Position numbers and translations under genes: made by a program. From Acidobacteriota bacterium (GTDB lineage Bacteria > Acidobacteriota > Thermoanaerobaculia > Gp7-AA8), in NCBI GenBank assembly GCA_019244185.1, contig JAFATB010000014.1, positions 63,587 to 127,586 of the forward strand: a DNA stretch of 64,000 nt, written 5' to 3'. The notes below the pieces were generated by a model, which made no database searches, was not told where the DNA came from, and was given only the letters and a program-made list of their open reading frames with translations. Of the stretch, positions 38,156-55,817 are shown one piece after another; the stretch's first letter is position 1, and every line of letters starts with the position of its first letter.

Positions 38156-38331
38156 TCTCGACGATCGTGATGGTCGCCGTCGTCGTGCTGCTCGCGTTCA
38201 CGCTCGCCGCGGCGCGGCGTTCGTGGCAGCGGCAGCTCGAACTGGAACGCGCAAACGAGACGATGCAGCGCGAGCTACAGCGCCACCGCGACACCGTGCA
38301 TTCGATTCTTCGGGAGTTGCAGAATCCATGA
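38152..38331 (+). CDS. small single-TM protein (59 aa), unannotated
   Basis: GTGA overlap with the motB-like stop. VISTIVMVAVVVLLAFTLAAA TM plus a charged helical tail. ATGA overlap with the next gene. Confidence 0.45.
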   Translation: MISTIVMVAVVVLLAFTLAAARRSWQRQLELERANETMQRELQRHRDTVHSILRELQNP

Positions 38332-39658: not shown

Positions 39659-39724
39659 ACGCCCCAAGGTAGGGACTCGCCCGCTTCCCGACTCTCCATG
39701 GTTGTGGAACGTAAAGGAGACGTG

Positions 39725-41266
39725 ATGAGTCGACGTGTAATCCGAGGTTTGGCCGCGCTCGTTTTCCTCGTTGGGGCTCTTTCCTGCAAGCAAGAGACGC
39801 CGTCGCCGGCGGTCGACAAGGCGCCGCCGCCCGCGCCGAAGCCGGCGGTGGTGACGACGGTGAATCTGCCGCCGAACTCGTGGCAGGTGCCGGTCGACGT
39901 CAGTCCCACCCCGCCGCCCAATCCGCCGCAGAACAACTACCTCAACCTCGGCTGGCAGACCTTCGTCGCGCTCAACTGGCCGGCGCTCTCGCCGTCGTCA
40001 GGCGGACAGAACGCGCAGCCGGACACGAACTCCGTCATCGGCGCGGTGGCACCGAACGGCGCGATCGTGCCGACGGTGTGGAACACGTACCGCGATCTCA
40101 GCACGATCATGCTCGATCAGGGCGCCGATCCGGGATCGACGTACACGCAGCAGGTTTCGATCCCGTCCGCGTGCGCGGCGATCACGCCGGCCAATCCGGT
40201 CGCGCCGGGCTTCCAGCCGATGTACATCGACGGCTCGACGTTCCAGACCGCGACGATCGTGCGCGACTACATCAATCAGGCCACCGGCAATCCGCTCGTC
40301 GATCAGAAGGGGTGGTACACGATCACGGACATCCGCGTCGATCCTTCCGAGTACGCGTACATCCAGCAGAACGGCTACTACCTCGGCGCGAATCAGGTCG
40401 CGGCGTACAACAAGTCGGGCCAGTTGCAGCCGTTCCCGAAGAACGGCACCGAGATCACGCCGCCGCTGCCGTCGTACGCGCAGTACGGCGCGCTCGAGGT
40501 GAAGGCGACGTGGCGCGTGCTGAATCCCTCGACCGACTCCGCGATCATCCCGCGCTACTACACGCAGTGGGGTTACTTCATGCAGCCGGACGGCAAGACC
40601 TGCCAGGGACCGGCGCTGTTCGGCCTCATCGGCATGCATATCCTTCGACTCACACCGTCGATGGGCGGCACGTGGTTCTGGGCGAGCTTCCAGCAGGTCG
40701 ACAACGTCGCCGCACCGAACGGCATCGCGCCGACGCTCGCGAAGCTGGGCACGCCGAACGGCAACTGCGGCGGCAACTACAACAAGAAGCCGCCGCAGGT
40801 CACCGGCAACATTCCGTGGAACGGCAACAACACGCCGGACGACATCTGCCAGGTCAAGAACATCCCGAGCGAAGTGCAGCAGGTCAATCAGACGTGGCAG
40901 AAGAATCTGAGCGGCACGGTCTGGCAGTACTACGAGATGGTGCACACGCTCAACCCTTGCCCGTCGGGCGCGAAGGAATGCTACGTCTTCCCGCCGATCA
41001 AGGATCAGAACAACAAGATCGATCTGAAGATCTTCGGCAACAACGCCATCGAGACGTACTTCCAGACCAGCAACTGCATGACCTGTCACGGCTCGGCGTC
41101 GGGCAACGGCGCGCCGTCGCCGCTGACCGGCACGAACCAGATCTTCACGTTCGTCCTGCTCAACGCGTACATGCCGCAGACGACGCAGACGAACGCGAAG
41201 CGCAGCGAGATCAAGCGGCTGCTCGAGGTGCTGCCGCAGAGCGACGCCGTCGCCATGCATCCGTAG
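39725..41266 (+). CDS. secreted lipoprotein, Pro-rich linker, N/Q/T-rich body, single C-terminal CxxCH motif (possible c-type haem site)
   Basis: RBS AAGGAGA. Lipobox LVGALSC. PAVDKAPPPAPKPAVV linker. NCMTCHG near the C-terminus. Codon and amino-acid composition shifts to lower GC relative to its neighbours. Confidence 0.5.
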   Translation: MSRRVIRGLAALVFLVGALSCKQETPSPAVDKAPPPAPKPAVVTTVNLPPNSWQVPVDVSPTPPPNPPQNNYLNLGWQTFVALNWPALSPSSGGQNAQPDTNSVIGAVAPNGAIVPTVWNTYRDLSTIMLDQGADPGSTYTQQVSIPSACAAITPANPVAPGFQPMYIDGSTFQTATIVRDYINQATGNPLVDQKGWYTITDIRVDPSEYAYIQQNGYYLGANQVAAYNKSGQLQPFPKNGTEITPPLPSYAQYGALEVKATWRVLNPSTDSAIIPRYYTQWGYFMQPDGKTCQGPALFGLIGMHILRLTPSMGGTWFWASFQQVDNVAAPNGIAPTLAKLGTPNGNCGGNYNKKPPQVTGNIPWNGNNTPDDICQVKNIPSEVQQVNQTWQKNLSGTVWQYYEMVHTLNPCPSGAKECYVFPPIKDQNNKIDLKIFGNNAIETYFQTSNCMTCHGSASGNGAPSPLTGTNQIFTFVLLNAYMPQTTQTNAKRSEIKRLLEVLPQSDAVAMHP

Positions 41267-41365: not shown

Positions 41366-42421
41366 ATGCGCAAATTCGTCGTCTGTGCTCTGGTGATGTT
41401 CGCGGCCGCCGTTGCGTCCGCGGCCGATCTGCAACTCACGAAAGAGACGCTGGCGGACGGCGTGTATCTCTTCCGCGCGCCGTCGGATCTCGATCTGTGG
41501 ACGGCGACGAACGTCGTGGCCGTCGTCGGCGACCGCGACGTGACGGTGTTCGACACGTGCACGCGCCCGGTCACCGCGCGCATGGTCATCGCGGAGATTC
41601 GCAAGATCACGGACAAGCCGGTGCGCACGATCATCAACTCGCACTGGCACATGGACCACTGGATGGGCAACGCGGAGTTCGCGAAGGCGTATCCTGGCGT
41701 CGAGATCATCGCCACGGAAGAGACGCGCGCGTACATGCAGCGCATGGGCAACGCGTTCTTCTCCGGCTCGATCGCGAAGGGTGTGGCGCGGCGGCGCGCC
41801 GACCTCGCGAACGCGACGAGCGACGCGCAGCGCAAGCAGCTCGAAGACGAGATCGCGTTGTACGACGCGTTCGCGAAGGAGAGCGCCGAGGTGCCGCACG
41901 TGCTGCCGACGCTGACGTATCGGGAGGAGCTCACGTTCTGGCGCGGCAAGCGCGAGTTCCGGCTGATGAGCGTCGTGGGCGACGCGACGGGATCGACGGC
42001 GCTGTTTCTGCCCGCGGAGAAAATCCTCGTCACCGGCGACGCGCTCGTGCATCCCGAGAGCGGCGACGGACCGCCGCCGTGGACGACGAACTCGTACGCG
42101 ATCACGCCGTGGCTGGCCACGCTGCGGAAGTTCCAGGCGCTCGACGCGCGCGTGATCGTCCCGGGTCAGGGGCCGGCGTTTCACGACGAGGCGTATCTCG
42201 ATCTGACCGCGGAGCTCTACCAGTCGATCCTCGATCAGGTGCACGGCGCGATGGAGCGCGGGCTGACGACGCTGGCGGACATTCAGGCGGCGGTGAACGT
42301 CGATGCGATCGGCCTGCGCTACACGCCGGGAGCGACGGCCCCCGATCCCGACTTCAAGCGTCTCGTCGGCGTGCTGACGAAGAAGGCGGCGCAGGAGGCG
42401 TTCGACGGCGTGGAGCGCTGA
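41366..42421 (+). CDS. secreted MBL-fold metallo-hydrolase
   Basis: Signal peptide plus INSHWHMDHWMGN (HxHxDH). Confidence 0.75.
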   Translation: MRKFVVCALVMFAAAVASAADLQLTKETLADGVYLFRAPSDLDLWTATNVVAVVGDRDVTVFDTCTRPVTARMVIAEIRKITDKPVRTIINSHWHMDHWMGNAEFAKAYPGVEIIATEETRAYMQRMGNAFFSGSIAKGVARRRADLANATSDAQRKQLEDEIALYDAFAKESAEVPHVLPTLTYREELTFWRGKREFRLMSVVGDATGSTALFLPAEKILVTGDALVHPESGDGPPPWTTNSYAITPWLATLRKFQALDARVIVPGQGPAFHDEAYLDLTAELYQSILDQVHGAMERGLTTLADIQAAVNVDAIGLRYTPGATAPDPDFKRLVGVLTKKAAQEAFDGVER

Positions 42422-42439: not shown

Positions 42440-44023
42440 TCATTTGCGCGCGTCGAGCTTCAGCCGCAGCCCGTTCTTCGCCGTGCCGACCGGATTTCCC
42501 TGCACGTCGACGTAGAGCGTCGCGCCGCGCGCGGTGGTGATGGCGATGTCCAACTTCGTGTCGTGATTGCGATCGGCGACGTGCAGGCTGGCGATGGTCT
42601 CCGTGCGCGGCATCAGGTGTCCCGACCAGAGCGGCTTCGCGTCGCGCAGCTTCTTGGGATCGTAGACGAGCACGCGGTTCGCGCCCGCGACGGCGATGCG
42701 CGGCGCGTAGTGCGGACCGGCGCGGTAGATCTCGACGGCGCGCAGTTTCTCGGGCGCCTCGCACGTGTCGCCGCGGCCTCCTTCCGCATCGTAAATGGCG
42801 ATGTGCCCACCCCACAGCGCGACGAAATGGTGATGACCGTTGCGGAACAGATCGCCCGCGGTGAGCTCGCGCAGCGGCTCGGGTCCGGTGATCGTCCAGA
42901 CGCGCGTGCCGATGCGGTCGAAGCCGATGAGTGCTTTGCGCGTGCCGGCGACGATGGTGCCGTCGGCCTGCGCGGTGTGCGTGATCGGAGCCTCGACGTC
43001 GTTGCGCCAGAGCAGCTTGCGCGGCGACTTGAGAAAGGTGCGAAGCGTATGTCCACTCGCAACCACGATGACAGGCGGTGGAGGCGGAACGCTGCAATCG
43101 GCGAGCGGCATGTTCTTGGCCTCGCCGTCGAGGCTGATCTGCGTCGCCGAGCCGATCGCGTGGTCGACGTGGTCGCGGATCCACTTGCGCACGCTGCGCT
43201 CGACGTACGCGTGCAGCGTCGTCGCGGTCACGCGCTTCCGTAACGTCGTGGCGTTGCACTGCAGCCCTTCCATCACCGCGGCGGTGAAGACGCCGTTGCG
43301 CCGGTCCGGATCGTCGTATGCGGCGCCTACGGTCGAGAGCACGACCTGTCCGTGGACGCGCGGCATCTGCTTCGCGAGCGTCATCCCCGCGTACGACAGC
43401 GCGTCGACGCCGCGGCTGCCGGCGATGCGCTGCTTGCACGCGTCGATGAGGATGAGCGAGCGCGGCACGCGGTGCGCGGCGATGACGTCGAGCAGCGCCG
43501 CGGTCGACACCGGTTGTCCCGACGCCGCCACGACGTGCTGGATGCCGCCGCGGACGAAGCCGTGCGTCGCGAACGAGACGATGAGAAAGCCGTGGCTGCC
43601 CGCGATCGCCGCCTGCTGCCCGGCGAGGGCGAGGATGTGGTGCGGCTCGGCTTTCGCGACGCGCGCGCCGGCGCGGATCAACTCGCGCAGCCGGTTGCTT
43701 GACTCCGGTTTGTCCGGCGCGCCGGAGAGCGCGAGCACGATGCGCTGCGGCGGCACGAGGCGCACGCGGCGATCGAAGGCGAAGAGATACGCGAGATCGA
43801 TCGCATCGTCGACGGCGTACGGGATCTCGCGCAACGCGCCGCGGTCGAAGGTGCGGATGCCGACGAAGAGCGCCGCCGCGCGGCCGCCGTCGGCCGGCGC
43901 GGACGTGCTAGCGTCGACGAGTGAGAGCGGCGTCACCGAGCGCTGTCCCGCAAACTCCGCGGCGCCGAATGCGGCCGATAGACAGGCGAAGGCGACGAAC
44001 GTCCAGCGCTTCACGGAGCTCAC
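42440..44023 (-). CDS. caspase-family (peptidase C14) secreted protein with C-terminal beta-rich domain
   Basis: Signal peptide. Catalytic dyad context SFATHGF (His-Gly) and LILIDACKQ (Cys). Confidence 0.6.
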   Translation of the reverse strand: MSSVKRWTFVAFACLSAAFGAAEFAGQRSVTPLSLVDASTSAPADGGRAAALFVGIRTFDRGALREIPYAVDDAIDLAYLFAFDRRVRLVPPQRIVLALSGAPDKPESSNRLRELIRAGARVAKAEPHHILALAGQQAAIAGSHGFLIVSFATHGFVRGGIQHVVAASGQPVSTAALLDVIAAHRVPRSLILIDACKQRIAGSRGVDALSYAGMTLAKQMPRVHGQVVLSTVGAAYDDPDRRNGVFTAAVMEGLQCNATTLRKRVTATTLHAYVERSVRKWIRDHVDHAIGSATQISLDGEAKNMPLADCSVPPPPPVIVVASGHTLRTFLKSPRKLLWRNDVEAPITHTAQADGTIVAGTRKALIGFDRIGTRVWTITGPEPLRELTAGDLFRNGHHHFVALWGGHIAIYDAEGGRGDTCEAPEKLRAVEIYRAGPHYAPRIAVAGANRVLVYDPKKLRDAKPLWSGHLMPRTETIASLHVADRNHDTKLDIAITTARGATLYVDVQGNPVGTAKNGLRLKLDARK

Positions 44024-45084
44024 ACGATACCGTTGCCCTGCGTCTGCGCCGTGACGCCGCCGAGGAATCGCACCGCCGCCGCGAATCCTTCTGCGATCCC
44101 CGATTGCGACACCTGCACGACTTCCTGCAAGCCGCCCGCGCTGCGCAGCTGCAGTTCGTCATAGAGGCAGATCGGCAGCCGCGGATTGCTGGCGAAGCGG
44201 CGATCCGGACCTCCGTCGCGGTTGACGTAACGCCAGGTGTAACCGACGACCAGGGCGTCGAACGGCGCGGGAGGGGTTTGGATCATCCGCGACTCGGTGA
44301 CGCTGAGCTCGAGCGAGCGGTATGCGAGCGCGCCGATGCTGCGGCCGTCGTCGATGAGCAGGCGATCGGGTAGGAAATAGAGCGTTCGCGCGCCCAGGGC
44401 GAGGCTGGGGATCGCGACATTCGTGCGTAGATAGGGCGGTGCGGCGAAGCGCATGCGCGTGAGCTCGCGCGGCACCAGCGGACTCGCGCCGGCGTTGTAC
44501 TTCCAGTCGTACACGCCGCCCGATGCCTCCACGTGCCAGAGCCGCTCCGACACCGCGAGCGCCTGCGACCACTCGAGCAGGCGGTGAAACGCCTCCGCCG
44601 CCTGCGACTGAAGGTCGTACAGGACGACGACGTGCCTACGCCGCACGTCGCTGTACTTCGCCGCCGCGATCGCGGCGATGCCGACGGCGAACGCGAACAA
44701 GATGAAATCGGCCGATCCCGTCGAAGCAGCGTAGAGGAAGAAGAGAAACGCGCCGACGATCACCGGCAGCGTGATTCTGGTCGCGCTCCGCGCCGCGCGA
44801 ATTTGTTCGAGGAGCTGCATCGAGGACGAGTCGGCGAGCGACGCCGCGTCAGGGCCGCTCGTCTGCAGCGGCAAGAGCGCCGGCGTTGCGACGCGCGTGG
44901 GTGCATGCGCGCGCGGCAGCGTGTGGTGATACGACACGCCGCCGAGGCCCATGCGCACGTAGTTGCCGCGCGGTCCGGTGCCGACGCGGAAGCCGCGCAC
45001 GCCGACGGACATGCCGACGCCGGAGCCGGAGAGATTGAAGCGGAACGGACCGACGGAGACGCTCTTGCGGTACGAAAAGCCCAT
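44020..45084 (-). CDS. DUF4236 domain protein
   Basis: N-terminal MGFSYRKSVSVGPFRFNLSGSGVGMSVGVRGFRVG is the hallmark DUF4236 repeat. 4-nt overlap with the downstream caspase gene. Confidence 0.6.
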   Translation of the reverse strand: MGFSYRKSVSVGPFRFNLSGSGVGMSVGVRGFRVGTGPRGNYVRMGLGGVSYHHTLPRAHAPTRVATPALLPLQTSGPDAASLADSSSMQLLEQIRAARSATRITLPVIVGAFLFFLYAASTGSADFILFAFAVGIAAIAAAKYSDVRRRHVVVLYDLQSQAAEAFHRLLEWSQALAVSERLWHVEASGGVYDWKYNAGASPLVPRELTRMRFAAPPYLRTNVAIPSLALGARTLYFLPDRLLIDDGRSIGALAYRSLELSVTESRMIQTPPAPFDALVVGYTWRYVNRDGGPDRRFASNPRLPICLYDELQLRSAGGLQEVVQVSQSGIAEGFAAAVRFLGGVTAQTQGNGIV

Positions 45085-45090
45085 GCGCCG

Positions 45091-47298
45091 TCAGACACCG
45101 CCGCCTCGCTTTTGTGGCGTCGACTCCCACGTCGTCCGCTCAATCGACCAGTTCGACGGCGTGACGACGGCGCGCGTGGAGCTGCCGAGCGACGCGAGTA
45201 GCTCTTCGAGCGGTGTCGACGGCCGCGTGCCGTTCGACCGCACGCCGTTCCATTCGAGAAGCGACGGATTCGGCAGCGGCTGATCGGTGGTCAGCAGCAC
45301 GTACGTGTCGACGCCGTACGGCGGCGAGACCTCGAAAGCGCAGAGCGGGATCTCGGCGGGCGGCGCTACCGACGGGTCGATCGGGAAGCGGTTCTCCACC
45401 GAGCCGCTCGCGGCGCGCGGATAAAGAAGGATGCTCTGGCCGCGGCTGTCGATCACGAAGAGGTAGACGAAGCGGCCGTCGACGCGCGGCGGCAGATTCA
45501 CGCCGCGCAGCACCGCCTGATAGCGCTCGTGTCCCATGACGCTCGTTCCGTGCACGAGCGCGTTGTCGTGCGCGCGCCGCAACGCGAGGTGATACGGCGA
45601 GCGCGCCGCGGGCGGCGAGTCGAGCAGTTGCCACGCGGCGATGCGGCGCAGGCGGAGCGCGGTGTCGCGCAGCGTCTCCGCGTCGCTCGTCCACGCGCTG
45701 CGCACCGGCAGGCCCGACTTGCGGCGATCCGCGCGCGTGACGCCGGGGCGGATCCACGCGTACGCGAGCCGCCCGTTCACGAAGCGTCCGGTGAGGATGT
45801 AGTCGGCCTCGGCGGGATCGTTCGCGACATCGTTCGGCGGAATGGCGAGCCGTTCGACGATGGCCTGCGGCGCGGGCAGCTGCACGAAGAGCGACGCGCC
45901 TTCCGGCACCGCGCGCACGGCGTTCTCCGCGCCGTCGGTATCCGGCGTGAACGCCGTTGACGCGCCGCGCGGGCGCAGGAGCTCCCACTGCTCGTTACCG
46001 CGTCGCAGCACGTACTGCGGCGTCGTGGCGGTGGGATCGTGAATCCAGCGCAGACCGCGTTGCGCCGCGATGCGCGTGAGCGCGCGCGCGAGTCCGCCGA
46101 TCGAGACTTCGCCCAGCGCGACTTGCGGCAGCGCGACGCGCAGCGGTCGCGCGGGCGCGGCGAGCCAGCCGGACGGTTCGAGCAACGTCCCGGCGTCGAC
46201 GCGTCCTTCTTCCACACGCGCCTCGGCATTGCCGAGTCCGACCAGCGCCGTGACGCGGACGCGCGTGCGCGGATCTCCGGCCACGCGCAGCACGCTGCCG
46301 GCGGAGAGTCCGTTCGCCCAGCCGCCCTGCAGCAGCACGTTGCCGTTCGCGAGGAGTTTGGCCACCGCGACGCGCGTGCGTTCGTCGCCACGTGCACTAC
46401 GGCGTTCGTCACGCGTGCCGAGGAACGGCGTGTTGCGCGCGGAAGCAGTCGCGGCGAACACCGGCTCCTGAAACGGCATCTCCGTGCGCAGGCGCGCCTG
46501 CGTGCGCAGAAACATCTCGAACGCCGACTCGTCCGGCGCGGCGTCGCGCATCGCGCGCATCCAGCCCCACGTGAACGCGCCGTGCAGATTGTTGCGGTCG
46601 TCGCGTTTCTCGCGCGCGTCCTCGAAGTCCTGCGACGCGGCGATGACGACGGCGCCGCGCGACTCCGGACGCGGTCCCGCGTCCGCGCCGTCGGCGACGT
46701 CGCGCTGATCGGGCTTGATGCCGCGCGCGACCGCGCCGGTCGGCAGTCCGCGCGCACCGGAGCCGCTGTGGCAGTCGTCGAGCATCACCGTGAGGCGCGC
46801 GCCGCGATCGAGGACGCGGTTGAAGAGGCGGCGCAGTTCCTTGTCGCGGATGTCGGGCGCGCCGCGACGCGAGTCGGCGGGGACGATCGATTCGTCGAGA
46901 TGATCCGGCTCGTCCGAGCGCGAGTTGCGCACCTGCGAGCCGTGGCCCGCGTAGTAGAAAAACACGATGTCGCCTTCGGCCGCCGTCGCGACGAGCTGCG
47001 TTTCGATCGCGCGCAGGATCGCCGCGCGCGTCGCCGCCTCATCGGTCAGCGTCACGATGTCCTGCAGTGCGAAGCCGCGCAACGCGACGAGCAACTGCCG
47101 CATCGCCTCGACGTCGTTGACCGCGCCGCCGAGGGGCGGCCAGTCGCGTTCCGGCGCGGCGGGTCCGAGCGACGGGAGATGCGAGGCCGAGTAGTCGTTG
47201 ATGCCGACGAGCAGCGCGCGTTTGTGCGGCGCGGCGGCCGCGTCGTGGGCGAAGATCACGGCGCAGAGGAGCGCGAAACAGGCGTGCTTCAGCGACAT
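45091..47298 (-). CDS. caspase-family (peptidase C14) secreted protein, large C-terminal extension
   Basis: Signal MSLKHACFALLCAVIFA. ALLVGINDY, YYAGHGSQ and MLDDCHSGSG are canonical caspase/metacaspase His and Cys motifs. The ORF-track start at 47637 is upstream of the signal peptide and unlikely. Confidence 0.75.
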   Translation of the reverse strand: MSLKHACFALLCAVIFAHDAAAAPHKRALLVGINDYSASHLPSLGPAAPERDWPPLGGAVNDVEAMRQLLVALRGFALQDIVTLTDEAATRAAILRAIETQLVATAAEGDIVFFYYAGHGSQVRNSRSDEPDHLDESIVPADSRRGAPDIRDKELRRLFNRVLDRGARLTVMLDDCHSGSGARGLPTGAVARGIKPDQRDVADGADAGPRPESRGAVVIAASQDFEDAREKRDDRNNLHGAFTWGWMRAMRDAAPDESAFEMFLRTQARLRTEMPFQEPVFAATASARNTPFLGTRDERRSARGDERTRVAVAKLLANGNVLLQGGWANGLSAGSVLRVAGDPRTRVRVTALVGLGNAEARVEEGRVDAGTLLEPSGWLAAPARPLRVALPQVALGEVSIGGLARALTRIAAQRGLRWIHDPTATTPQYVLRRGNEQWELLRPRGASTAFTPDTDGAENAVRAVPEGASLFVQLPAPQAIVERLAIPPNDVANDPAEADYILTGRFVNGRLAYAWIRPGVTRADRRKSGLPVRSAWTSDAETLRDTALRLRRIAAWQLLDSPPAARSPYHLALRRAHDNALVHGTSVMGHERYQAVLRGVNLPPRVDGRFVYLFVIDSRGQSILLYPRAASGSVENRFPIDPSVAPPAEIPLCAFEVSPPYGVDTYVLLTTDQPLPNPSLLEWNGVRSNGTRPSTPLEELLASLGSSTRAVVTPSNWSIERTTWESTPQKRGGGV

Positions 47299-47735
47299 TT
47301 GACGAGCCTCTCTGCTTCGTCCTGGGTCACGTCGCCGTACGTCCAGATGCATTTGGAGACGTCTTTGTAGGCGACGCCGCGGAATTCGTGCAGGCGCAGG
47401 AAGCGCTTCACGCCGCCGCCGTACGCGTCGTATTCGCCGGCGCCGTAGTGCATCGCTTCGATCATCGAGCCGTCGAGGATGATCCCGGTCTCGAGGAGCA
47501 GCACGCGGCAGTCGCGGCCGGCGGCGTTCGCGCGGATGTGCCACGCGTGGAAGCGCGACGCGTCGTACAGCTGGGCAAGCGACCGGGCCGCCGCGACGTG
47601 CTGGCCGGCGTTCGCGGCCGAGCGCTTCGCGGTGCATTGCGCGCCGCCGAGGATCAGGAGTGCGCCGAGGAGGAATGTGCGCGCCAAGGGTTGATCCTTT
47701 CGAAAAGGTGCGCCGCCCGTTGCCGGGCGGCGCAC
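47289..47735 (-). CDS. small secreted hypothetical protein
   Basis: Hydrophobic N-terminal segment LARTFLLGALLILGGAQC. Sits in an operon between caspase-family genes. Confidence 0.4.
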   Translation of the reverse strand: MRRPATGGAPFRKDQPLARTFLLGALLILGGAQCTAKRSAANAGQHVAAARSLAQLYDASRFHAWHIRANAAGRDCRVLLLETGIILDGSMIEAMHYGAGEYDAYGGGVKRFLRLHEFRGVAYKDVSKCIWTYGDVTQDEAERLVKCR

Positions 47736-47748
47736 CGCGGAAACGAAA

Positions 47749-48825
47749 TCAGTGCGTCGGCGGGCAGAGGATGCGGTCGTCGGGGCCGCGGCCGACGTTG
47801 AGGCGCAGTCCGTTCAGCAGATCGGACCAGAGCTCCGTCGTCGGGTGGATCGTCGCCCAGCTGACCTGCGGATACGAGCCGACGGTGGACGCGGGACCGG
47901 CGAACGGCACGAGGCGCTCTTCGCGCGCCGGCGCGTTGTCGGCGAGGTCGTAGTACAGCTCGAAGTGCTTGCCGGGCGCGGGCGACGGATTGCCGGTCGT
48001 CAGCGGCGGCGTGCGCGACGGCAGGTTCACCACCGCGAGCTCGATCTTGCCGTCTTCGTCGGGCGTGAGGTGCATCGTGCGTCCCGGATCGCCGTCGAAC
48101 TTCGTCTCGACGAGATCGATGCTGTCGCCGGTGACCTCGATGTCCGCGCCGACCCACGTGGCGATCGCCTGCGAGTACGTCGAGACGCTGCCGGTGCCGT
48201 CGAGGCGGCGGAAGTTCACGGGCGTGACGTCGCTGCCGATGCGCGCGACGGAGTACGTGAAGAGGTTCCCCGAGCGCAGTTTGAAGCGCGCCACCACGAG
48301 CCCCTCGGGCGGCGTCGACGAGGTGAGCGCCGACTTGAACGTGCAGTCGGGGCAGATGGACTGAAGCGCGGCCACCCACGAGAAGTCGCGGCGCTCGGTG
48401 GCCGTCGTCGGAATGACGGACGTCACCCCGTTGACGACCGCGCGGTCGCCGGTCTCGATGGTGAGCGACGGCAGATCGGCGGCCGACGTGCTGCCTTTGC
48501 GCAGCGTGAGATCGGAGGCGTCGAGCAGCCACGCACCGCCGCCATCGATGGCTGCCTCGAGCGACGCGAGCGCCGCCGTCGACGACTGATCGGGATACAT
48601 GAACGCCGCAATGGCGCTGTCGTTGGTCGGGCAATCGCCCGTGCAGCTGCCGCCGCGCGCGAAGACGAGCGGTTTGTGCGGCGGCAACGCGGTGCCGTCC
48701 GACATGTGGTAATGCTGCGCGCAATCGCCCGCGCTGAGCAGCACGACGTCCATTTCCGTCCCGTTCTGCGACGGAATGAATGCAATGAGACCACTGAAAA
48801 CGATGTGCAGAATGAAACTACCCAC
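47749..48825 (-). CDS. secreted hypothetical protein (about 358 aa)
   Basis: GTG start with RBS AAAGGAGA 7 nt upstream. Signal-like FILHIVFSGLIAFIPS. The overlapping track ORF 47654..48724 (-) is rejected. Confidence 0.5.
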   Translation of the reverse strand: MGSFILHIVFSGLIAFIPSQNGTEMDVVLLSAGDCAQHYHMSDGTALPPHKPLVFARGGSCTGDCPTNDSAIAAFMYPDQSSTAALASLEAAIDGGGAWLLDASDLTLRKGSTSAADLPSLTIETGDRAVVNGVTSVIPTTATERRDFSWVAALQSICPDCTFKSALTSSTPPEGLVVARFKLRSGNLFTYSVARIGSDVTPVNFRRLDGTGSVSTYSQAIATWVGADIEVTGDSIDLVETKFDGDPGRTMHLTPDEDGKIELAVVNLPSRTPPLTTGNPSPAPGKHFELYYDLADNAPAREERLVPFAGPASTVGSYPQVSWATIHPTTELWSDLLNGLRLNVGRGPDDRILCPPTH

Positions 48826-48844
48826 GGTTGTTCTCCTTTTTCGT

Positions 48845-51800
48845 TTACCGCGCGGGCGCGAACGGTGACGAGCCATGGCCGATCACCTGAAACGGAGCCC
48901 ACACGAGCACCGACTGGAGGCCGGAGGAGTTGTTTTTCCGGAGCAGTTCGATTTGCGCTTTCTGCATCGCCACTGCCGCGTCGTCGCCCATCCTGTAGTG
49001 CTGATGGAAAGACACGAGCAGGGGCTCCACTGTGGCGTCGCCGATGTTCCATAACGTCCCGACGACGGCTGGGACGCCATTGGCGATGAGCGGCCGTACG
49101 AGCGGACCGACGCCTTCCGCGCCGACCGGCATACCGGCCGCGCTGCTGCACGCCGCGAGCACGACCAGCCGCGCGCGCCCCGGCTTCAATTGCGACAGCA
49201 GATGAGCGGCGTCGAGAGCGCCTGGTTGTCCCGGCGTCTGCGCGAAATGCAATGAGGAACTGGAAGGCGTCTGTGCGTCGACGATCGCGTGCGCGGCGAC
49301 ATGAACGATCGCATCGTCGCGGACGCCTGTAATGAACGCGTCCGCCGTGGCGTCCGCTCCCGTCCGCACGACCGCCCCTGCATACGATTGCGCGATCGCG
49401 TGCACTTCCGCCTCGGCACCGGGCAAATGCGCGCCGTCCGGATTCCCGATCAGCAGCGCCGACGTGTCGCGCGGTAATTGCGCGTCGCGCGTGACCGACA
49501 GCGTGTACAGTGCCGCGCTCCCGGCCGTTTCGACCGGAGCATCTTCAATGACATAGCGGCGCGTCTCCGGATTGCGCAGCGCGGAAAACGGCAATCCGTA
49601 CATCGGTCCGTCCGGCACGAATACCAGCCGCGCGGCGCCGTTCGTCATTTGTGCCACGGCGCGCAACGGCTCGGCGAGCAAGGCGTCGTATGCGGCGAAC
49701 AGCGTGGCATCGAGTGTCGTCGTATCGCGCGTCGGCACCGCGCGCGACAACGCATTGTTCCAGCGCTCGACGTCGCGCTGCCGCACGCCGAGCGGGAGCA
49801 ATCGCCACGCGTCGCGGCTGATGACCCACGCGTACGTGCGGTCCTCCATCACCGTGTATTCAATGAGAAACGTTCCGGGCGGCAAGGTGCGCTGCAGCGC
49901 GGGCAGGTCGAGCTGGCTCGGCGCGTTCGGCGGCGGCGCGAGCTTCAAGGCGAGATTGAGCGGCTCGAACGCGCGCGAGCGGTCGGCATAGACGAACGCC
50001 TCCGCCTGCCGGTTCGTCTCGATCAGCTCGCGGATGAGGACGTGATACGCGTCCTCAAAGCGCGAGAAGTAATCGCTCCAGAGGATGTCCTCCCCGCCGC
50101 GGACGCGCTTCTCGAGGACGCGCGCTTCCTCCTGATGGAGCAGGTCGAGCGCCGCGCGCAGATCGGCCTCGCTCTCCCGCTCCAGCCCGGCGCGCCGTTC
50201 CGCCGCGGCGCGTTGTGCATAAAGGGACGCGCGAAACGCGCTGTATTCGAGGCCGCGCGAGAGATCGATGGCGGACGTGAACGCGGCCACGGCGCGTCGC
50301 GGATCGCGCGGTGCATAGGCCTGAGCTTCCACCTCGGCAATGCGCGCGTCGAGCGCGACGCGGTATTGCGGAGAAGGATCTCTTGCGCTGAGCCGCCTGG
50401 CTTCGGCGAGATCCTGCAATGCGGCATGGTTGTGGCCGGTCAGGAGCTGATAGTCGGCGCGCCGGCGGAGTGCAATGGCGATGTTCGTCTGCAGATACGC
50501 GATCGCCACGAGCCGGTCGGGCGGCGTTTCGACGGACATCTGCTGGACGAAGCGGACGCCTTCATTGGCGTACTGCAGTGCGGCTTGCGGATGGCCGAGG
50601 GCAAGCGCCGATGCGGCCGATTCACCGAGGACGAGGTGCCGGTCGCGCGGTTGTCCGAGGAAGCGGCGATTGCGAACGGTGGCGAGCGCGTCGCTCCAGC
50701 CGCGCTCGGACTGGCCGAGGACGCGCAGGATGCCGAAGCGGCGCGTGGCGGTCGCGGTGAGACCTTCCGGATCGTGCAGCCGCCGGTACATCGCGCTGGC
50801 CTCGTCATAATGGGCCAGCGCCTCGAGATGCCGGTCCTGTTGCCAGAGCTGATACCCGGCGCCGGAAGTGAGCCACGCCTCGATGTTGGCGTAACCCCGC
50901 GCGTGCGTCTCGCGGCGCATGGCCTCGATCGCCGCGACGTCCTTCTTGGAGAAGGCCAGCCCGCCTCGGGCGTACAGAGCCGCGGGACTGCCGCCGAGCT
51001 GTAATTGCGGGACCGCCGCCGCGTAATACGTGTTGATACCGGGAAACGTCGTAATGCGCCCGTCGCGCAGCGCCGCGTAGCCCGCCTTCAATGCCGCGCG
51101 TTGCGCCGGATTCGCGGACGCCACCGCCGCGATCTCGTCGCGCGCGTAATGATTTCCGGTGATCCGCGTCCATGCGTCGGCGAGCGTGCGCGCATAAGGC
51201 AATTGATCGGGCAGCAGCTCGTCTTCCATGTACAGCAGCGCGCTCGACGGATGCAGGCGGACGATGCGCTCGACCGCGCGGCGGTCGCCGGCGCGCAGCG
51301 CGGCGTGGAGCCACCGCGGCGACCATTGTTCGTCCCTCTGTTGTTGCAGCCGCCGCAGACGCTCGCGGGAGGTGGCGTCCTCGTTCTGCAGCGCGCCGAA
51401 GATCGCCATTGCGTCGGTCGTTAATCCCAGCGCTTCCTCGCACAAGGCGAGATTGAAGCGCGCGGCGGCCGGCGGCGGGATCGCGTTCGCGGCGTGAAAC
51501 GCGGCGTCGAAGGCATTGAGGTAATCGGCGGGCCGGTTCTGCCGCTGCGCGCGGATGTAATACGCGGCGGCGAGATCGCTCATGGCCGTGGCGTCGCGGT
51601 CGGCGAAATTCTTCAATGCCGCGATGCCGGCGTCGCTGCACGCCGTCTGGGCAATGGCCACGGAGACCGCCTGCTGCTCGGTGCGGATCGGGCGGCAATC
51701 CTTCTGGTCGGCAAGGCTCCAGTCGACCTCGACGCTCAGGCGCGGCTCGAGCCCCCACTCTTTGCGCGCATTCGTGTCTGACTTGGTGCAGTCGATCGAT

Positions 51801-51859
51801 AGACTGCAGAGGACGGCAGCGATGGCGATGAACGCGGAAGCTCTCAAGACTCTCATACG
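48845..51859 (-). CDS. CHAT-domain (caspase HetF-associated with TPRs) protein with N-terminal TPR repeats, lipoprotein-like signal
   Basis: C-terminal CHAT His/Cys motifs (VHVAAHAIVD...; LVVLAACSSAAG). Long TPR-like helical repeats. Start taken at MRVLRASAFIAIAAVLCSLSIDC. Confidence 0.7.
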   Translation of the reverse strand, partial: RMRVLRASAFIAIAAVLCSLSIDCTKSDTNARKEWGLEPRLSVEVDWSLADQKDCRPIRTEQQAVSVAIAQTACSDAGIAALKNFADRDATAMSDLAAAYYIRAQRQNRPADYLNAFDAAFHAANAIPPPAAARFNLALCEEALGLTTDAMAIFGALQNEDATSRERLRRLQQQRDEQWSPRWLHAALRAGDRRAVERIVRLHPSSALLYMEDELLPDQLPYARTLADAWTRITGNHYARDEIAAVASANPAQRAALKAGYAALRDGRITTFPGINTYYAAAVPQLQLGGSPAALYARGGLAFSKKDVAAIEAMRRETHARGYANIEAWLTSGAGYQLWQQDRHLEALAHYDEASAMYRRLHDPEGLTATATRRFGILRVLGQSERGWSDALATVRNRRFLGQPRDRHLVLGESAASALALGHPQAALQYANEGVRFVQQMSVETPPDRLVAIAYLQTNIAIALRRRADYQLLTGHNHAALQDLAEARRLSARDPSPQYRVALDARIAEVEAQAYAPRDPRRAVAAFTSAIDLSRGLEYSAFRASLYAQRAAAERRAGLERESEADLRAALDLLHQEEARVLEKRVRGGEDILWSDYFSRFEDAYHVLIRELIETNRQAEAFVYADRSRAFEPLNLALKLAPPPNAPSQLDLPALQRTLPPGTFLIEYTVMEDRTYAWVISRDAWRLLPLGVRQRDVERWNNALSRAVPTRDTTTLDATLFAAYDALLAEPLRAVAQMTNGAARLVFVPDGPMYGLPFSALRNPETRRYVIEDAPVETAGSAALYTLSVTRDAQLPRDTSALLIGNPDGAHLPGAEAEVHAIAQSYAGAVVRTGADATADAFITGVRDDAIVHVAAHAIVDAQTPSSSSLHFAQTPGQPGALDAAHLLSQLKPGRARLVVLAACSSAAGMPVGAEGVGPLVRPLIANGVPAVVGTLWNIGDATVEPLLVSFHQHYRMGDDAAVAMQKAQIELLRKNNSSGLQSVLVWAPFQVIGHGSSPFAPAR

Positions 51860-51889
51860 ATACGCGTTTCGCGGAATCGAGAGCAGGCG

Positions 51890-52447
51890 ATGATGCGGAG
51901 GAGACACGGAGACCGCGACGACGCGCGCTTCGAGGCGTTGTACCGGAAGTATTACGCGCGCGTATACCGCTTCTTTCGCGGCTACGGGCTCGCCGACGAT
52001 CAGGCGCAGGACCTCGCCCAGGCGACGTTCACGCGGATCTACGAGAGTTTCGACCAGTACCGCGGCGAGGCGGAGTGGGGCTTCATCCAGACCACGGCGC
52101 GCAACGAATTACTGAACTGGATCCGCTCGCGCAAGACCGCCAAGCGCAACGCCGACGTCCAGAGCATCGATGAAGTATTGACCAGCGAAGAGCCGCGCGT
52201 CGAGGAAGGCCCCGACCTCGCCGAACGGCAGCAATCACAACTGCGCAAGGCACGCCTCTGGGCGGCCATCGCCGGACTGCCGGAAGGGCAGCGTCAGTGC
52301 ATGGAGCTCTGGCTGAGCGAGGCGAAGTACGAGGGCATCGCGCGGACGCTCGGCATCACCGTCGATGCCGTCAAGTCGCGCATCCGGGACGCCAAACGAT
52401 CCTTGCGCAGCACACTGGGAGAAGCCCTCCCGGAGGACGACGAATGA
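51890..52447 (+). CDS. ECF-type RNA polymerase sigma-70 factor
   Basis: Region 2 ([18 protein letters not shown]...DLAQATF) and region 4 HTH ([43 protein letters not shown]). Confidence 0.8.
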
Positions 52448-53202
52448 TCACCAAGGCGGAACTGCAGGCAATTCACGGGCAGGTCCAGGCGGAACGGCGA
52501 AGGCTGCTCGCGCCGCCGACGAATGAAGAACTGTTCGCGTTCATGCGCGGCGAACTGAAGCCGGAGGAGGAGGCGCGCGTCCGCGAACTGCTCATCGCGT
52601 ATCCCGAGCTCGTGCGAGCGATGACCGAGCCGTTCCCCGTCGACGACGCGCGGCCGGGCGACCCCGGCTATCTTTCGGAGAGCGATCTCGACGTGCAGTG
52701 GCGCTCGCTGCAGACGCGCATCCACGGCGATGCGTCGACGTCGAACCTGCGCTTCTGGCGGCGGACGTCGTTCGCGCTCGCGGCCGCGCTGGTCGTGGCG
52801 TTCGGCGGTCTCGTGTGGCAGTCGACGCGCGCGCGGCAGGCCGGGCTCGCGCCGCGCGTGGCCATCGACGGACAGCAACTGCTCCCCGACGGCGAGCGCG
52901 GCGCCGCGCAGCCGGTGACGCTCCTCGCGCGCGGCGACACGTTCCTGCTGTACACCTCGCTCATCAACCCGCCGGGCTTCGCGTCGTACCGGCTCGAGCT
53001 CGTGCGCGAAGACGCGCCGGCGCATCCCATCTGGAGCAGTCCGCCGCTGCCGCGTCCCGCGAACGATACGTTCCAGGTCGTCGTCCCCGCCGCCTTCCTC
53101 GCGCCGGGCCGCTACCAGATGATCGTCCTCGGCGTGAGCGGCGCGCGGCAGGAGCGGCTCGCAACGTACTCGTTGCACGTCGCCGACACGCGTCCGATGT
53201 GA
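52444..53202 (+). CDS. putative anti-sigma factor (single TM)
   Basis: ATGA overlap with the sigma gene. Central [18 protein letters not shown]. Typical size and position. Confidence 0.55.
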
Positions 53203-53225: not shown

Positions 53226-55817
53226 ATGCGTGGCTCGCTCGCCCTCGCTCTCGTGCTCACCGCGTTCTCCCTTTCCGCACAGGAGCGTGAGCTCGACGCC
53301 GCAACGACTCGCGATCTCGATTTCGCACTGACCCCGCGCACGGCGAAGCTGTCGGGCGATGCGTCCGTGATCCCGATCGAGATCGCGATCCCCGCGGACG
53401 AGCTGCAGTTCGTCGAGGAGGGCGGCGTGCTCGCCGCGACGTTCTCCGTGCGCGCGGAAGCGCGCGGACAGACGACGCGGCTCGACGAGCCGCAGCGCAT
53501 CACCGCGCCGCGCGGCACGACGCCCGCGGGCGCGGTGACGCGGCGCTTCGACGTGCATGTGGAGCGCGGCACGACCACGATCGACGTCGTGCTGCGCGAC
53601 GAAAACGCGCAACGCGAGGCGCGCCGCACGCTGGCCATCGACGGACACGAGGTGCATCTCGTCGACGTGGCCGACGTGCGCGCGGCGGATGCGCTCTGGC
53701 GCGACGCGCTCGACCGCGCGCAGCGCGAGCACAAACCGATCGTGGTCTTCTTCGAGACGCGCCCGTGCAGCCGCTGCCGCACGTTCGCGAGCGCCACGCT
53801 GCCGCATCCCGCGATCCAGCGCCGCCTCCCGCCCGTGGTCGTCGTCACATTGCCGGCGCAGGCCGGCGAGGCGGCGCGGCAGTGGCAGTCCGCCGACGCG
53901 GGTGTCGCGTTTTTCGATCGACGCGGCGTGCTGCGCGCGCGCTGGCCGATCGTCCCCGACACGACCGACTTCGGCATCATCCTCGACTCCGTCGCCGCGG
54001 TCGCGAATGACTTCGAGCGCGCCGCGCAGCTCTTCGACGCGAACGACCCGGGCGCCGCGGAGCTCGCCGTCGCGAACGGATTCGGACGCCTGGGGCGCAT
54101 CGCCGACGCGCGTGCGGCGCTCGCCCGCGCGCAGGCGTTGCAGGATCGCGCGACGCAGCAGGCGGCGCTGGTCATCGGCGCGATCTTCGACGCGAACGAA
54201 GGCAGAGTCGCGGACGCGCTGACGCTGCTCCAGCCGCTCGCCGCCTCGGCGGTGAATGCGCAAATCGCCGCGGATGCGTGGCTCGCGATCGGCGCGCTGC
54301 AGCGCGCCCGCGGCGCGAACGACGCTGCCGCACGCGCGTTCACCGCGGCGCTCGAACATCTCGACCCGAATGCGCCGCGCGCGGCGGACGCACGGCAGGC
54401 GCTCGATGAGCTGCGCAACGGGATGCGCGTCGCCGGCGCCGTGCGCGTGTTGCCGCCGTCGCGACAGGTCGTCAGCGGCCGGCAGCTCGTACGCACGCAC
54501 GTCGGCTCGCCCGCCGTCGCGCGCGTGGCGTTTTCCATCGATGGCAAGGAAGCCGCGCGCGTGACGCGGCCGCCGTTCTCGGCCACGCTCGATTTCGGCG
54601 ACGTGCCGGAACGCCACGTCATCCGCGCGGTCGCCGTCGATCGCAAAGGCCGCGCGATCGGCCGCGACGAGCGCGCGGTCAACGACGCCGGCGAGACGTT
54701 CTGGCTGCACTTCGTCTCGCCGCGGGAAGGTCCCGCGGACGGCAGCAAGGTGCACGTCGCCATGAACCTGCGCGTGCCGCCGACGCAAACGCTGCGGCGG
54801 CTCGTCGTGTCGTGGAACGATGCCGAGCGCGCGGTGCTGCAGGCGCCGCCGTGGGAGACGGACGTCGCCATTCACAACGGCGAAGTCGGCGTGTTGCGCG
54901 CGGTCGCGGAGCTGAACGATGGGCGCACGTCGGAAGACGCGGTGCTCCTCAACGCCGGCGGCGCCGCGGGCCGCGCGGACGTGCAGCTCGTCGAGCTGCG
55001 GATGACGATCGCCGGCCGCGACGGCAACGCATCCGCCGTCACCGCGCAGGACATCGTCGTCCGCGAAGGCACGCGCTCGCGCCGCGTCGAATCGATCGCC
55101 TCCGCCGGGGAAACGCCGCTCACGATCGGACTGCTCATCGACGTCTCCGCGAGCATGCAGGCCTCGCTCCTCGACGTGCAGGAAGCCGCCATCGGTTTCC
55201 TCGAGTCGATCCTCGGCCCGCGCGACCGCGCGTTCGTCATCACCTTCGACACGCGCGCGCGCCTCGTGCAGCCGGCGACCTCCGACGTCGCGCAGCTCCG
55301 CCGCCAGATCATGACGCTGCGCCCCGACGGCCTCACGTCGATCCACGACGCGATGGTCCTCGGCCTCCTGCAGTTCGAAGGCGTGAAAGGCCGCCGCGCG
55401 ATGATCGTCTTCACCGACGGCCTCGACATCACCAGCGAGTACAAAGTCGCCGACGTGCGCGAGCTCGCGCGCCGCGTCTACGTGCCGATCCACGTCATCG
55501 CCTCGACGCCCGGCACCGCCGCGCGATTGCGCGCGTCGAGCGAGCCGCCGAAAGCGGAGCGCAGACTCGACGCGCCGAACGCGGAGCTGATGTCGATCGC
55601 GCGGGCCACCGGCGGCTCCGCGCAGACGCTCGACAACCTCGCCGAGCTCCCGCGCCTCTACGCGCAAATCGAGTCCGCCCTGCGCGCGCAACTCCTCGCC
55701 TTCGTCCGCACCGACCCCGGCACGCGCGCCAACGAATGGCGCCCGGTTACCGTGCACGTGAACGGCCGCAAAGACGCGGAGGTGTTTGCGCCCGAGGGGT
55801 ATTACGCGCCGTGGTGA
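53226..55817 (+). CDS. secreted protein with thioredoxin-like CxxC segment and C-terminal vWA domain
   Basis: Signal peptide. VVFFETRPCSRCRTF (Trx-like). vWA MIDAS LLIDVSASM ... IVFTDGLD. Confidence 0.6.
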   Translation: MRGSLALALVLTAFSLSAQERELDAATTRDLDFALTPRTAKLSGDASVIPIEIAIPADELQFVEEGGVLAATFSVRAEARGQTTRLDEPQRITAPRGTTPAGAVTRRFDVHVERGTTTIDVVLRDENAQREARRTLAIDGHEVHLVDVADVRAADALWRDALDRAQREHKPIVVFFETRPCSRCRTFASATLPHPAIQRRLPPVVVVTLPAQAGEAARQWQSADAGVAFFDRRGVLRARWPIVPDTTDFGIILDSVAAVANDFERAAQLFDANDPGAAELAVANGFGRLGRIADARAALARAQALQDRATQQAALVIGAIFDANEGRVADALTLLQPLAASAVNAQIAADAWLAIGALQRARGANDAAARAFTAALEHLDPNAPRAADARQALDELRNGMRVAGAVRVLPPSRQVVSGRQLVRTHVGSPAVARVAFSIDGKEAARVTRPPFSATLDFGDVPERHVIRAVAVDRKGRAIGRDERAVNDAGETFWLHFVSPREGPADGSKVHVAMNLRVPPTQTLRRLVVSWNDAERAVLQAPPWETDVAIHNGEVGVLRAVAELNDGRTSEDAVLLNAGGAAGRADVQLVELRMTIAGRDGNASAVTAQDIVVREGTRSRRVESIASAGETPLTIGLLIDVSASMQASLLDVQEAAIGFLESILGPRDRAFVITFDTRARLVQPATSDVAQLRRQIMTLRPDGLTSIHDAMVLGLLQFEGVKGRRAMIVFTDGLDITSEYKVADVRELARRVYVPIHVIASTPGTAARLRASSEPPKAERRLDAPNAELMSIARATGGSAQTLDNLAELPRLYAQIESALRAQLLAFVRTDPGTRANEWRPVTVHVNGRKDAEVFAPEGYYAPW

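Follow-up and report, generated by a model that had tools for sequence, protein, structure and literature searches.

An exported CHAT protease, a metacaspase-like protease and an ECF sigma/anti-sigma pair share a conserved gene block in Thermoanaerobaculia: a possible envelope signalling relay

What do exported proteases of the CHAT and C14 families do when their genes stand back to back with a sigma factor of extracytoplasmic function (ECF) and its anti-sigma factor? The question is raised by a locus on contig JAFATB010000014.1 (assembly GCA_019244185.1) of a soil acidobacterium, of which we analysed a stretch of 64,000 nt, here called the window; all positions follow its numbering. Six minus-strand genes, named A to F in the order of the run, lie there opposite a plus-strand sigma/anti-sigma pair (Table 1). 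The conserved unit consists of the anti-sigma factor, the sigma factor, the CHAT protease (A), B, C and the C14 protease (D), and the minus-strand run of the window is this core together with two accessory genes, E and F. We tentatively read the unit as a protease-driven envelope signalling relay of the Thermoanaerobaculia, in which the exported CHAT protease and the metacaspase-like D would act on the anti-sigma factor or be under its control.

Are these genes real, and do they belong together? Sequence of about 69% guanine plus cytosine (GC) yields many long spurious open reading frames (ORFs), and they are present here in every frame, which could speak for a chance juxtaposition of unrelated genes or for mere ORF artefacts. 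However, eight genes are singled out by a high third-position GC content (GC3 0.81-0.89 in the called frames) and by homology. Every part has homologues, 33-69% identical, that follow one another in unchanged order in dozens of genomes, and the conservation of the block does not extend to the genes that flank it in the window. We consider the chance reading to have practically no probability left, since the synteny counts given below rule it out. The packing of the run is tight, with gaps of 19 nt between A and B, 61 nt between B and C and 6 nt between D and E, and overlaps of 10 nt between C and D and 4 nt between E and F; the six co-directional, abutting or overlapping genes that an earlier note on this DNA had described are thus borne out by the ORF junctions. 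Its placing of an ECF sigma/anti-sigma pair immediately upstream and divergent holds as well: the sigma gene starts 30 bp from gene A on the opposite strand, and the start of the anti-sigma gene overlaps the sigma stop codon through an ATGA. Gene C begins at a TTG (47687) preceded by the ribosome-binding site AAGGA, and for A the TTG at 51850 may be the true start codon, in place of the ATG at 51859. Terminator-like sites in the region were no more frequent than in shuffled sequence.

To define the conserved unit, we collected 67 loci by a scan with an alignment of B (one genome per species), searched these and three further loci with the eight window proteins by tblastn, and restricted the counts to the 48 loci with enough flanking sequence. 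All 67 loci belong to Thermoanaerobaculia or to unclassified Acidobacteriota metagenome-assembled genomes (MAGs). An order in which the sigma and anti-sigma genes run in one direction and CHAT followed by B in the other was kept in every informative locus (48/48), with CHAT, the divergent sigma factor and the anti-sigma factor each found in 48/48; C was present in 44 and D in 47, in 44 of them at the same downstream position. F occurred in 26 of the 48 loci at variable position and on either strand, and E lay within 10 kb in seven, again on either strand. The six genes, real and tightly packed as they are, therefore do not form one conserved unit, because E and F vary as neighbours. The synteny search that the earlier note had proposed thus retrieves the sigma factor, the anti-sigma factor, CHAT and B together throughout, and again in distant relatives.

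The block also has a history of its own. When 38 loci were grouped by average-linkage clustering, the anti-sigma factor, CHAT, B and C all gave the identical two-way split; many hosts carry two diverged copies, and two-copy genomes carry one of each paralogous type. These matching splits fit a duplication of the entire block, followed by divergence as a matched set into two types.

Of the proteases, A is a member of the CHAT family, matching PF12770 with 177.7 bits (cutoff 24) over profile positions 6-288 of 289. It consists of a lipobox-like LSIDC (residues 20-24), a conserved (V/L)EPRLS motif (37-42), a helical region from about residue 60 to 700 and the CHAT domain (722-994). The N-termini of its homologues follow the pattern M-K-K-L...A-x-A-C-xxEDT, a lipoprotein signal, of which LSIDC is the version in the window. 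His857 of the dyad is retained in 60/60 homologues and Cys904 in 59/60, the remaining one being gapped there. The earlier designation CHAT-TPR is upheld in its first part; the second reduces to a single TPR_12 match of 24.8 bits, below the cutoff of 30.1, and TPR matches in relatives of A are faint.

The product of D matches Peptidase_C14 with 70 bits (cutoff 21.4), the PADLOC 'caspase' model at E 4e-23, and metacaspases in the PDB at 1e-16 to 2e-11, including yeast Yca1 (4f6o; 1.3e-16) and TbMCA2 (7.5e-12). A Sec signal cleaved between AAA and P (about residue 23) is followed by the C14 domain (26-283), a middle region and a weak, sub-threshold match to DUF4384 at 607-674 (E 9e-4); the homologues of D carry signal peptides too. 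G118, H119, G120, D174, C176 and S178, which make up the H-G and D-x-C-H-S-G motifs, are invariant in 53 homologues. An Asp two residues before the catalytic Cys, here Asp174, is presumably a mark of Arg/Lys specificity, as in TbMCA2 and Yca1. D is metacaspase-like, with an Arg/Lys specificity predicted from this single residue.

F is more divergent. It gave no Pfam Peptidase_C14 match at E <= 0.01 and no PDB sequence match at E <= 1, and it matches NF047832 at E 4e-8 with 32.9 bits, below the cutoff of 140. A profile comparison (hhalign) with the D family returned a probability of 70% and E 4e-5 over 142 columns, with the H-G and D-x-C motifs aligned, and its candidate dyad, His154 and Cys196, is invariant in 29 homologues. 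F therefore probably belongs to the caspase fold, judged from its sequence; its N-terminus is a hydrophobic signal or membrane anchor, and its C-terminal region is beta-propeller-like (PQQ_2 E 6e-4, sub-threshold). Two C14 caspases had been proposed for the run: D is one, and F stays outside the thresholds of the family. The motifs that had been read by eye, LAACSSAAG in A, YYAGHGSQ and MLDDCHSGSG in D, and SFATHGF and LILIDACKQ in F, are present and coincide with the invariant His and Cys positions, so the loss of catalytic residues that would have undone the protease assignment is not seen in any of the three. E is a DUF4236 protein as stated before (PF14020, 55.5 bits, cutoff 27) with a hydrophobic stretch at about residues 105-140. 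Of the signal peptides and extracytoplasmic location claimed for several products, those of A, C and D stand, F has its anchor, and B has no signal.

F-like genes also occur in other settings. In five loci, a full-length F is accompanied by a second ECF sigma/anti-sigma pair of its own, with 24-38% identity to the first one (L003:14534-17462, L004:13824-16718, L012:8897-11748, L037:3413-5694 and L068:13801-16572), which suggests a second, simpler module of sigma factor, anti-sigma factor and exported caspase. About nine loci have a short F-like ORF of about 330 amino acids (aa), with the caspase part only and without the propeller, antisense between C and D (L010:10581-11513, L014:11549-12460, L020:11563-12447, L031:11503-12414, L032:11503-12411, L034:7556-8380, L050:11500-12381, L060:11595-12419 and L068:10459-11331).

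How might exported proteases be connected to a sigma factor? The sigma factor contains Sigma70_r2 (E 3e-10) and Sigma70_r4_2 (E 2e-9) and no region 3, and it matches TIGR02937 with 72.9 bits (cutoff 42.9), which places it among the ECF (group 4) sigma factors. The anti-sigma factor matches NF052375 ('anti-sigma factor') weakly (E 7e-5). Its N-terminal, sigma-binding part has no cysteine in residues 1-105, and zf-HC2 is matched only at E 0.22. A transmembrane segment (residues 109-125) is followed by a periplasmic part of about 125 residues, which contains a conserved juxtamembrane loop, L-x-P-D-G-x-R-G (residues 148-153), and after it a beta-rich domain of about 100 aa. In an alignment of 53 homologues, the region PPTxEE..AYxRGELS..AYPELAR, the transmembrane segment and the PDGxRG loop are all conserved, the loop Arg in at least 90% of them. 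From the export signals and the topology of the anti-sigma factor, a position on the same side of the membrane is predicted for the products of A, C and D and for the C-terminal part of the anti-sigma factor.

The two transcription units meet in a very short control region, the sigma and CHAT start codons being about 10-30 bp apart in nearly all loci. In the gap we found the motif GAAmCGCGTATCkTA, 8-9 nt before the CHAT start, which reads (G/T)TG-AAA. The window holds one copy, and in 1.13 Mb of related loci all exact CGCGTATC[TGC]T matches (26/26) are this site in the CHAT-sense orientation. Its core TATCkTA is a symmetric TAnnnTA and could therefore be a -10-like element shared by both directions. 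A Shine-Dalgarno sequence is missing from the CHAT gene, and such a bidirectional element may give a near-leaderless CHAT transcript.

On this basis, we suggest the following relay. CHAT would sense an extracytoplasmic cue through its large helical region and act as the initiator protease, which would activate the metacaspase-like D or work alongside it. One of the two would then cut the anti-sigma factor in its juxtamembrane loop; the metacaspase-type Asp174 and the highly conserved Arg in the loop are counted in favour of this step. The cut would open the anti-sigma factor to intramembrane proteolysis and free the sigma factor, which would raise the transcription of the divergent operon and of its own. 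C might restrain or chaperone a protease, the cytoplasmic B might be an output or a guardian of the proteases, and E and F are accessory additions in this window.

The same genes could, however, be related by regulation only. According to this alternative, the sigma pair senses an envelope cue in the ordinary way and drives the operon, and the exported CHAT protease and metacaspase act on substrates other than the anti-sigma factor, so as, for instance, to mature or turn over surface proteins, to attack competitors or prey, or to scavenge protein. Genes adjoining an ECF pair very often are its regulon, and the start codons here share a gap of about 30 bp; moreover, the additional C-terminal domains of D, including the weak DUF4384, could bind substrates, and sets of CHAT, B and a protease exist without a sigma pair (L072 and L077, described below). 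On the other hand, the conserved juxtamembrane loop of the anti-sigma factor is left unexplained by regulation, and the characterised CHAT enzymes (separase, Craspase, SAVED-CHAT and DdvA) are specific regulatory proteases, not bulk proteases (PMC11506125; 10.1101/2023.06.23.546230). The block was also duplicated as a matched set, and within it the anti-sigma factor co-diverges more tightly with CHAT than with its own sigma factor: across the 38 loci, the correlation of pairwise distances, uncorrected for phylogeny, reached its highest value, 0.89, between the anti-sigma factor and CHAT, compared with 0.80 between the sigma factor and the anti-sigma factor, as is expected of a signalling partner more than of a mere target. 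We therefore regard regulation without a cut of the anti-sigma factor as a serious but rather unlikely explanation.

The member of the block that fits least easily is B. It is the best-conserved of the block proteins, with 51-69% identity in loci where CHAT has 33-49%, and the exact protein has a database entry, as a hypothetical protein from an Acidobacteria MAG. Neither Pfam, NCBIfam nor PADLOC gave a match, and its confident structural model had none among the solved structures searched; gasdermin, Pepco/Trypco, EACC1, metallo-beta-lactamase (MBL) fold and alpha/beta hydrolase were each considered and rejected, as there was no match in sequence or fold. Directly after the ribosome-binding site, B of the window and all homologues read begin with M-x-(S/T)-F-I-L-R-I-L-F-S-G-L-I-A-F-V-P, a segment that is conserved even at about 25% identity and is modelled as a hairpin of beta-strands in the core. 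B had been described as secreted; as it lacks a signal in the window and in all homologues read and starts with a conserved beta-strand, its sequence identifies it as a cytoplasmic protein, not a secreted one. Residues conserved across the superfamily include His50, His287 (in an HFExYY motif), Asn267, Pro269 and Cys354. The C-terminal tail is of low confidence or disordered in the model, and R341, R346 and C354 in the tail region are invariant. A profile of B searched against 1.84 billion representative proteins retrieved 608 clusters (50% identity) at E <= 1e-3 and 207 at E <= 1e-10, with no Pfam domain in the ten members scanned and no signal in the members read. Two members have additional parts: P0129 (569 aa) has an N-terminal extension of 220 aa, and in P0252 (669 aa) a B-like domain is combined with a C-terminal domain that is probably trypsin-like, in which TAAHV and GDSG are recognisable by eye and Trypsin_2 is matched only at E 0.02. 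C, in comparison, is a small lipoprotein restricted to this block, with a lipobox and a two-cysteine mature domain modelled as an alpha/beta sandwich, and it has no family annotation in the libraries searched.

Eight contexts of distant relatives of B show which parts stay together. In L071, L074 and L075, whose B proteins were found with a distant alignment (A2; identity of members to its first sequence 20-31%), CHAT followed by B again diverges from the sigma and anti-sigma genes, and C14 proteins are encoded beyond the anti-sigma gene on its strand: two abutting it in L075, one abutting it and a second after three other genes in L071, and a C14-like gene in L074. L076 has CHAT and B adjoining a zf-HC2 anti-sigma factor and a 254-aa gene without a Pfam match. 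L077 has CHAT next to B, with a C14 gene after B and no sigma factor in the 9.5-kb contig, and L072 has CHAT, B and a trypsin in a row with no sigma factor in 13 kb. L073 is a partial B relative of 620 aa, standing alone. CHAT thus directly adjoins B in seven of the eight contexts, and the class of the third protease varies (C14 in L071, L075 and L077, trypsin in L072). The distant CHAT proteins carry lipoprotein or anchor signals, the distant C14 and trypsin proteins carry signals, and the anti-sigma loop just outside the membrane is kept as L-L-P-D-G-x-R-(G/D) in L071, L074 and L075. The CHAT-B pair is the deepest core, usually accompanied by a sigma/anti-sigma pair and a second protease of changeable class. 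The layout of L071 and L075 recurs in a divergent subgroup (L065, L066 and L069; B 39-42% identical), where the C14 gene lies 3' of the anti-sigma gene on the sigma strand and C is absent.

A constant partner beside exchangeable proteases also brings to mind a conflict or cell-death module, as the earlier note had proposed. B would then be a latent effector licensed by CHAT or by the second protease, for example through removal of its disordered, Arg-rich and Cys-bearing C-terminal tail, and the sigma pair would tune expression. In defence protease-effector modules (PMC12642450), where gasdermin, Pepco or EACC1 stand beside caspase-like or trypsin-like proteases, the partner typically stays constant and the class of the protease is exchanged. 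The adjacency of CHAT and B in 7/8 distant contexts, the interchangeable third protease, the B-like/trypsin-like protein P0252 and the low-confidence B tail with its invariant R341, R346 and C354 can be put on the same side. Yet the proteases are exported and B is not, so that enzyme and substrate would be in different compartments; a scan of the eight proteins detected no sensor domain, nothing points to a mobile defence island, the GC content is even along the window, and B resembles no known effector and shows more conservation than one would expect from an effector in an arms race. PADLOC gave only generic protease matches for the eight cluster proteins, the rest of the window not having been screened for CRISPR (clustered regularly interspaced short palindromic repeats) or for CBASS (cyclic oligonucleotide-based antiphage signalling systems). 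Because of these generic matches, the lack of a structural match for B, and the export of proteases that are cytoplasmic in known modules, the conflict reading is without specific support and we consider it improbable. What is kept of the earlier proposal is a regulated proteolytic module linked to the sigma pair, which fits the synteny (48/48), the intact dyads and the export signals.

Returning to the signalling relay, several points weigh against it. All of its steps are drawn from context and analogy, and its most conserved member, B, is cytoplasmic and yet has no role in the relay as drawn. No -35/-10 pair of the ECF type was recognised in the sigma/CHAT control region, so that control of the operon by the sigma factor is a prediction. 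The best structural match of C is protease-prodomain-like, the match being weak and the fold very common, and the distance correlations include shared phylogeny. Finally, the available contigs of L072 and L077 have CHAT, B and a protease (trypsin and C14, respectively) but no sigma pair, and the protease/B core may therefore work independently, with the sigma pair only as its regulator. Weighing them against the evidence above, we still prefer the relay, as a tentative interpretation.

Table 1. Position, strand and basis of the features described in the window
Feature	Position	Strand	Basis
ECF sigma factor, 185 aa	51890..52447	+	Sigma70_r2, Sigma70_r4_2, TIGR02937
Single-pass anti-sigma factor, 252 aa	52444..53202	+	ATGA overlap with sigma stop; alignment of 53 homologues
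Anti-sigma transmembrane segment	52768..52818	+	
Anti-sigma juxtamembrane loop	52885..52902	+	
Non-coding motif GAAmCGCGTATCkTA	51856..51870	-	aligned across 45 loci
Gene A, lipoprotein TPR-like/CHAT protease, 1004 aa	48845..51859	-	PF12770 E 4.5e-52
Gene B, signal-less, 358 aa	47749..48825	-	no family match
Gene C, small lipoprotein, 132 aa	47289..47687	-	no family match
Gene D, secreted, metacaspase-like C14 protease, 735 aa	45091..47298	-	Peptidase_C14 E 3.2e-19
Gene E, DUF4236 membrane protein, 354 aa, accessory	44020..45084	-	PF14020 E 8e-15
Gene F, divergent, probably caspase-like protein, 527 aa, accessory	42440..44023	-	no Pfam C14 match; invariant dyad
Secreted MBL-fold hydrolase	41366..42421	+	SoxH-related matches, sub-threshold
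VWFA-type protein (acidobacterial) with signal peptide	53226..55817	+	TIGR03436, 119 bits
Ser/Thr kinase with C-terminal TPRs	55853..59167	+	
ORF, 1428 aa	31058..35344	+	weak N-terminal Tubulin_2 match, E 9e-4
ORF	35877..37427	+	no Pfam match
ORF	38223..39545	+	no Pfam match
ORF	39698..41266	+	no Pfam match

In the window, the MBL-fold hydrolase gene converges on F with 18 nt between the stop codons, and MBL hydrolases are protease-licensed effectors in other systems. A von Willebrand factor A (VWA)-type protein and a Ser/Thr kinase are encoded 3' of the anti-sigma gene on the same strand. Neither the hydrolase, the VWA protein, the kinase nor the other neighbours were found beside the module in any other locus. 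Further away, a 1428-aa ORF with a weak tubulin-like match is followed by three ORFs. Loci L001 and L002 have three genes directly adjoining the module, for a 915-aa Tubulin_2 protein, a VWA protein and a protein of 948 aa, and the tubulin-like and VWA genes may be a separate system that tends to sit near it.

Is the block a known system? Its outline resembles two characterised ones, which serve as precedents for the logic of the proposed relay. In the DdvS/DdvA system of Myxococcus xanthus, the anti-sigma factor carries a fused periplasmic TPR-CHAT part, proposed to be its own site-1 protease (PMC11506125); its authors called DdvA the only characterised anti-sigma factor of this kind, with fused forms found only in Myxococcota and one Comamonas (PMC11506125). 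Both systems have an ECF sigma factor, a single-pass anti-sigma factor and, on the periplasmic side, a large helical-repeat region with a CHAT domain and His-Cys dyad, and in both the CHAT protease is proposed for the site-1 cut that precedes intramembrane proteolysis. Here, however, CHAT is a lipoprotein with a gene of its own on the opposite strand and not the C-terminus of the anti-sigma factor, whose N-terminus lacks the zinc-binding HxxxCxxC or CHCC motif and whose periplasmic part is small and beta-rich; the block adds three conserved genes (B, C and the C14 protease), and the lineage is Acidobacteriota. Since CHAT is not fused and the anti-sigma factor has no zinc-binding domain, we rejected membership in the DdvA type. 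It is conceivable, although we think it doubtful, that Thermoanaerobaculia have a caspase-type proteolytic cascade outside the cytoplasm, in which the lipoprotein CHAT as initiator and the secreted metacaspase as second protease are a dedicated site-1 protease system of an ECF anti-sigma factor, an unfused, two-protease relative of DdvA, coupled to a protein B of unseen fold that is perhaps a new protease-linked effector or guardian.

The second resemblance is to the type III-B CRISPR locus of Haliangium ochraceum, where the C14 protease PCaspase is activated through cleavage by SAVED-CHAT; PCaspase in turn cuts a sigma factor and also a small inhibitor of the caspase from the same cluster, whose gene stands between them (bioRxiv 10.1101/2023.06.23.546230). 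The two clusters have in common a CHAT protease, a C14 protease, a sigma factor and a small protein, C being comparable to the inhibitor PCi by cast only. That system is cytoplasmic, responds to cyclic oligoadenylate through SAVED and is linked to CRISPR or CBASS, whereas the proteases here have export signals, the sensor part of CHAT is a helical repeat region, a membrane anti-sigma factor is present, and B has no counterpart. Membership was rejected, as A has no SAVED match, the eight cluster proteins scanned include no CRISPR-linked components, and the proteases are exported.

A dedicated protease that frees an ECF-like sigma factor by cutting its holder is also known from Craspase (gRAMP-TPR-CHAT) with Csx30, Csx31 and CASP-sigma, and from CalpL/CalpT/CalpS. 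Unlike the present block, these are cytoplasmic, activated by RNA or cyclic nucleotides and located in CRISPR loci, with neither membrane anti-sigma factors nor exported proteases. Secreted cysteine proteases followed by the gene of a cytoplasmic inhibitor occur in operons of the staphopain/staphostatin type, to which separase and securin can be compared. B, a signal-less protein encoded directly after an exported cysteine protease, resembles these inhibitors in its guardian-like position and compartment. Carboxypeptidases, subtilases and CHAT proteins have been described near ECF sigma factors in the context of ECF54, and proteolytic control was proposed from synteny (PMC8999054); ECF54 is described without an anti-sigma factor, in contrast to the canonical membrane anti-sigma factor that is always present here. 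The defence modules in which proteases are paired with gasdermin, Pepco, EACC1 or MBL effectors (PMC12642450) share with the block a constant partner beside caspase-like or trypsin-like proteases of interchangeable class, and differ from it in that B has no match among their families in sequence or in fold, and that the proteases of the block are exported and lack an attached nucleotide-binding sensor.

In the searchable literature we found no account of the block. Its CHAT, C14 and ECF sigma components belong to known families as ordinary members; what is new is the assembly, together with the unannotated families of B and C. Control of sigma factors by proteases is a recurring theme, from regulated intramembrane proteolysis to DdvA, Craspase, CalpL and PCaspase, and the examples with CHAT or caspases known so far are either defence systems of the cytoplasm or one fused anti-sigma factor. 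A module in separate parts would allow deletion or purification part by part and would thus be a cleaner system for asking whether CHAT really is a site-1 protease, and it would let caspase-style relays of initiator and executioner be examined in the bacterial envelope. The link of B to CHAT proteases makes its function experimentally approachable, in hosts that are abundant, uncultured and poorly understood Acidobacteriota of soils.

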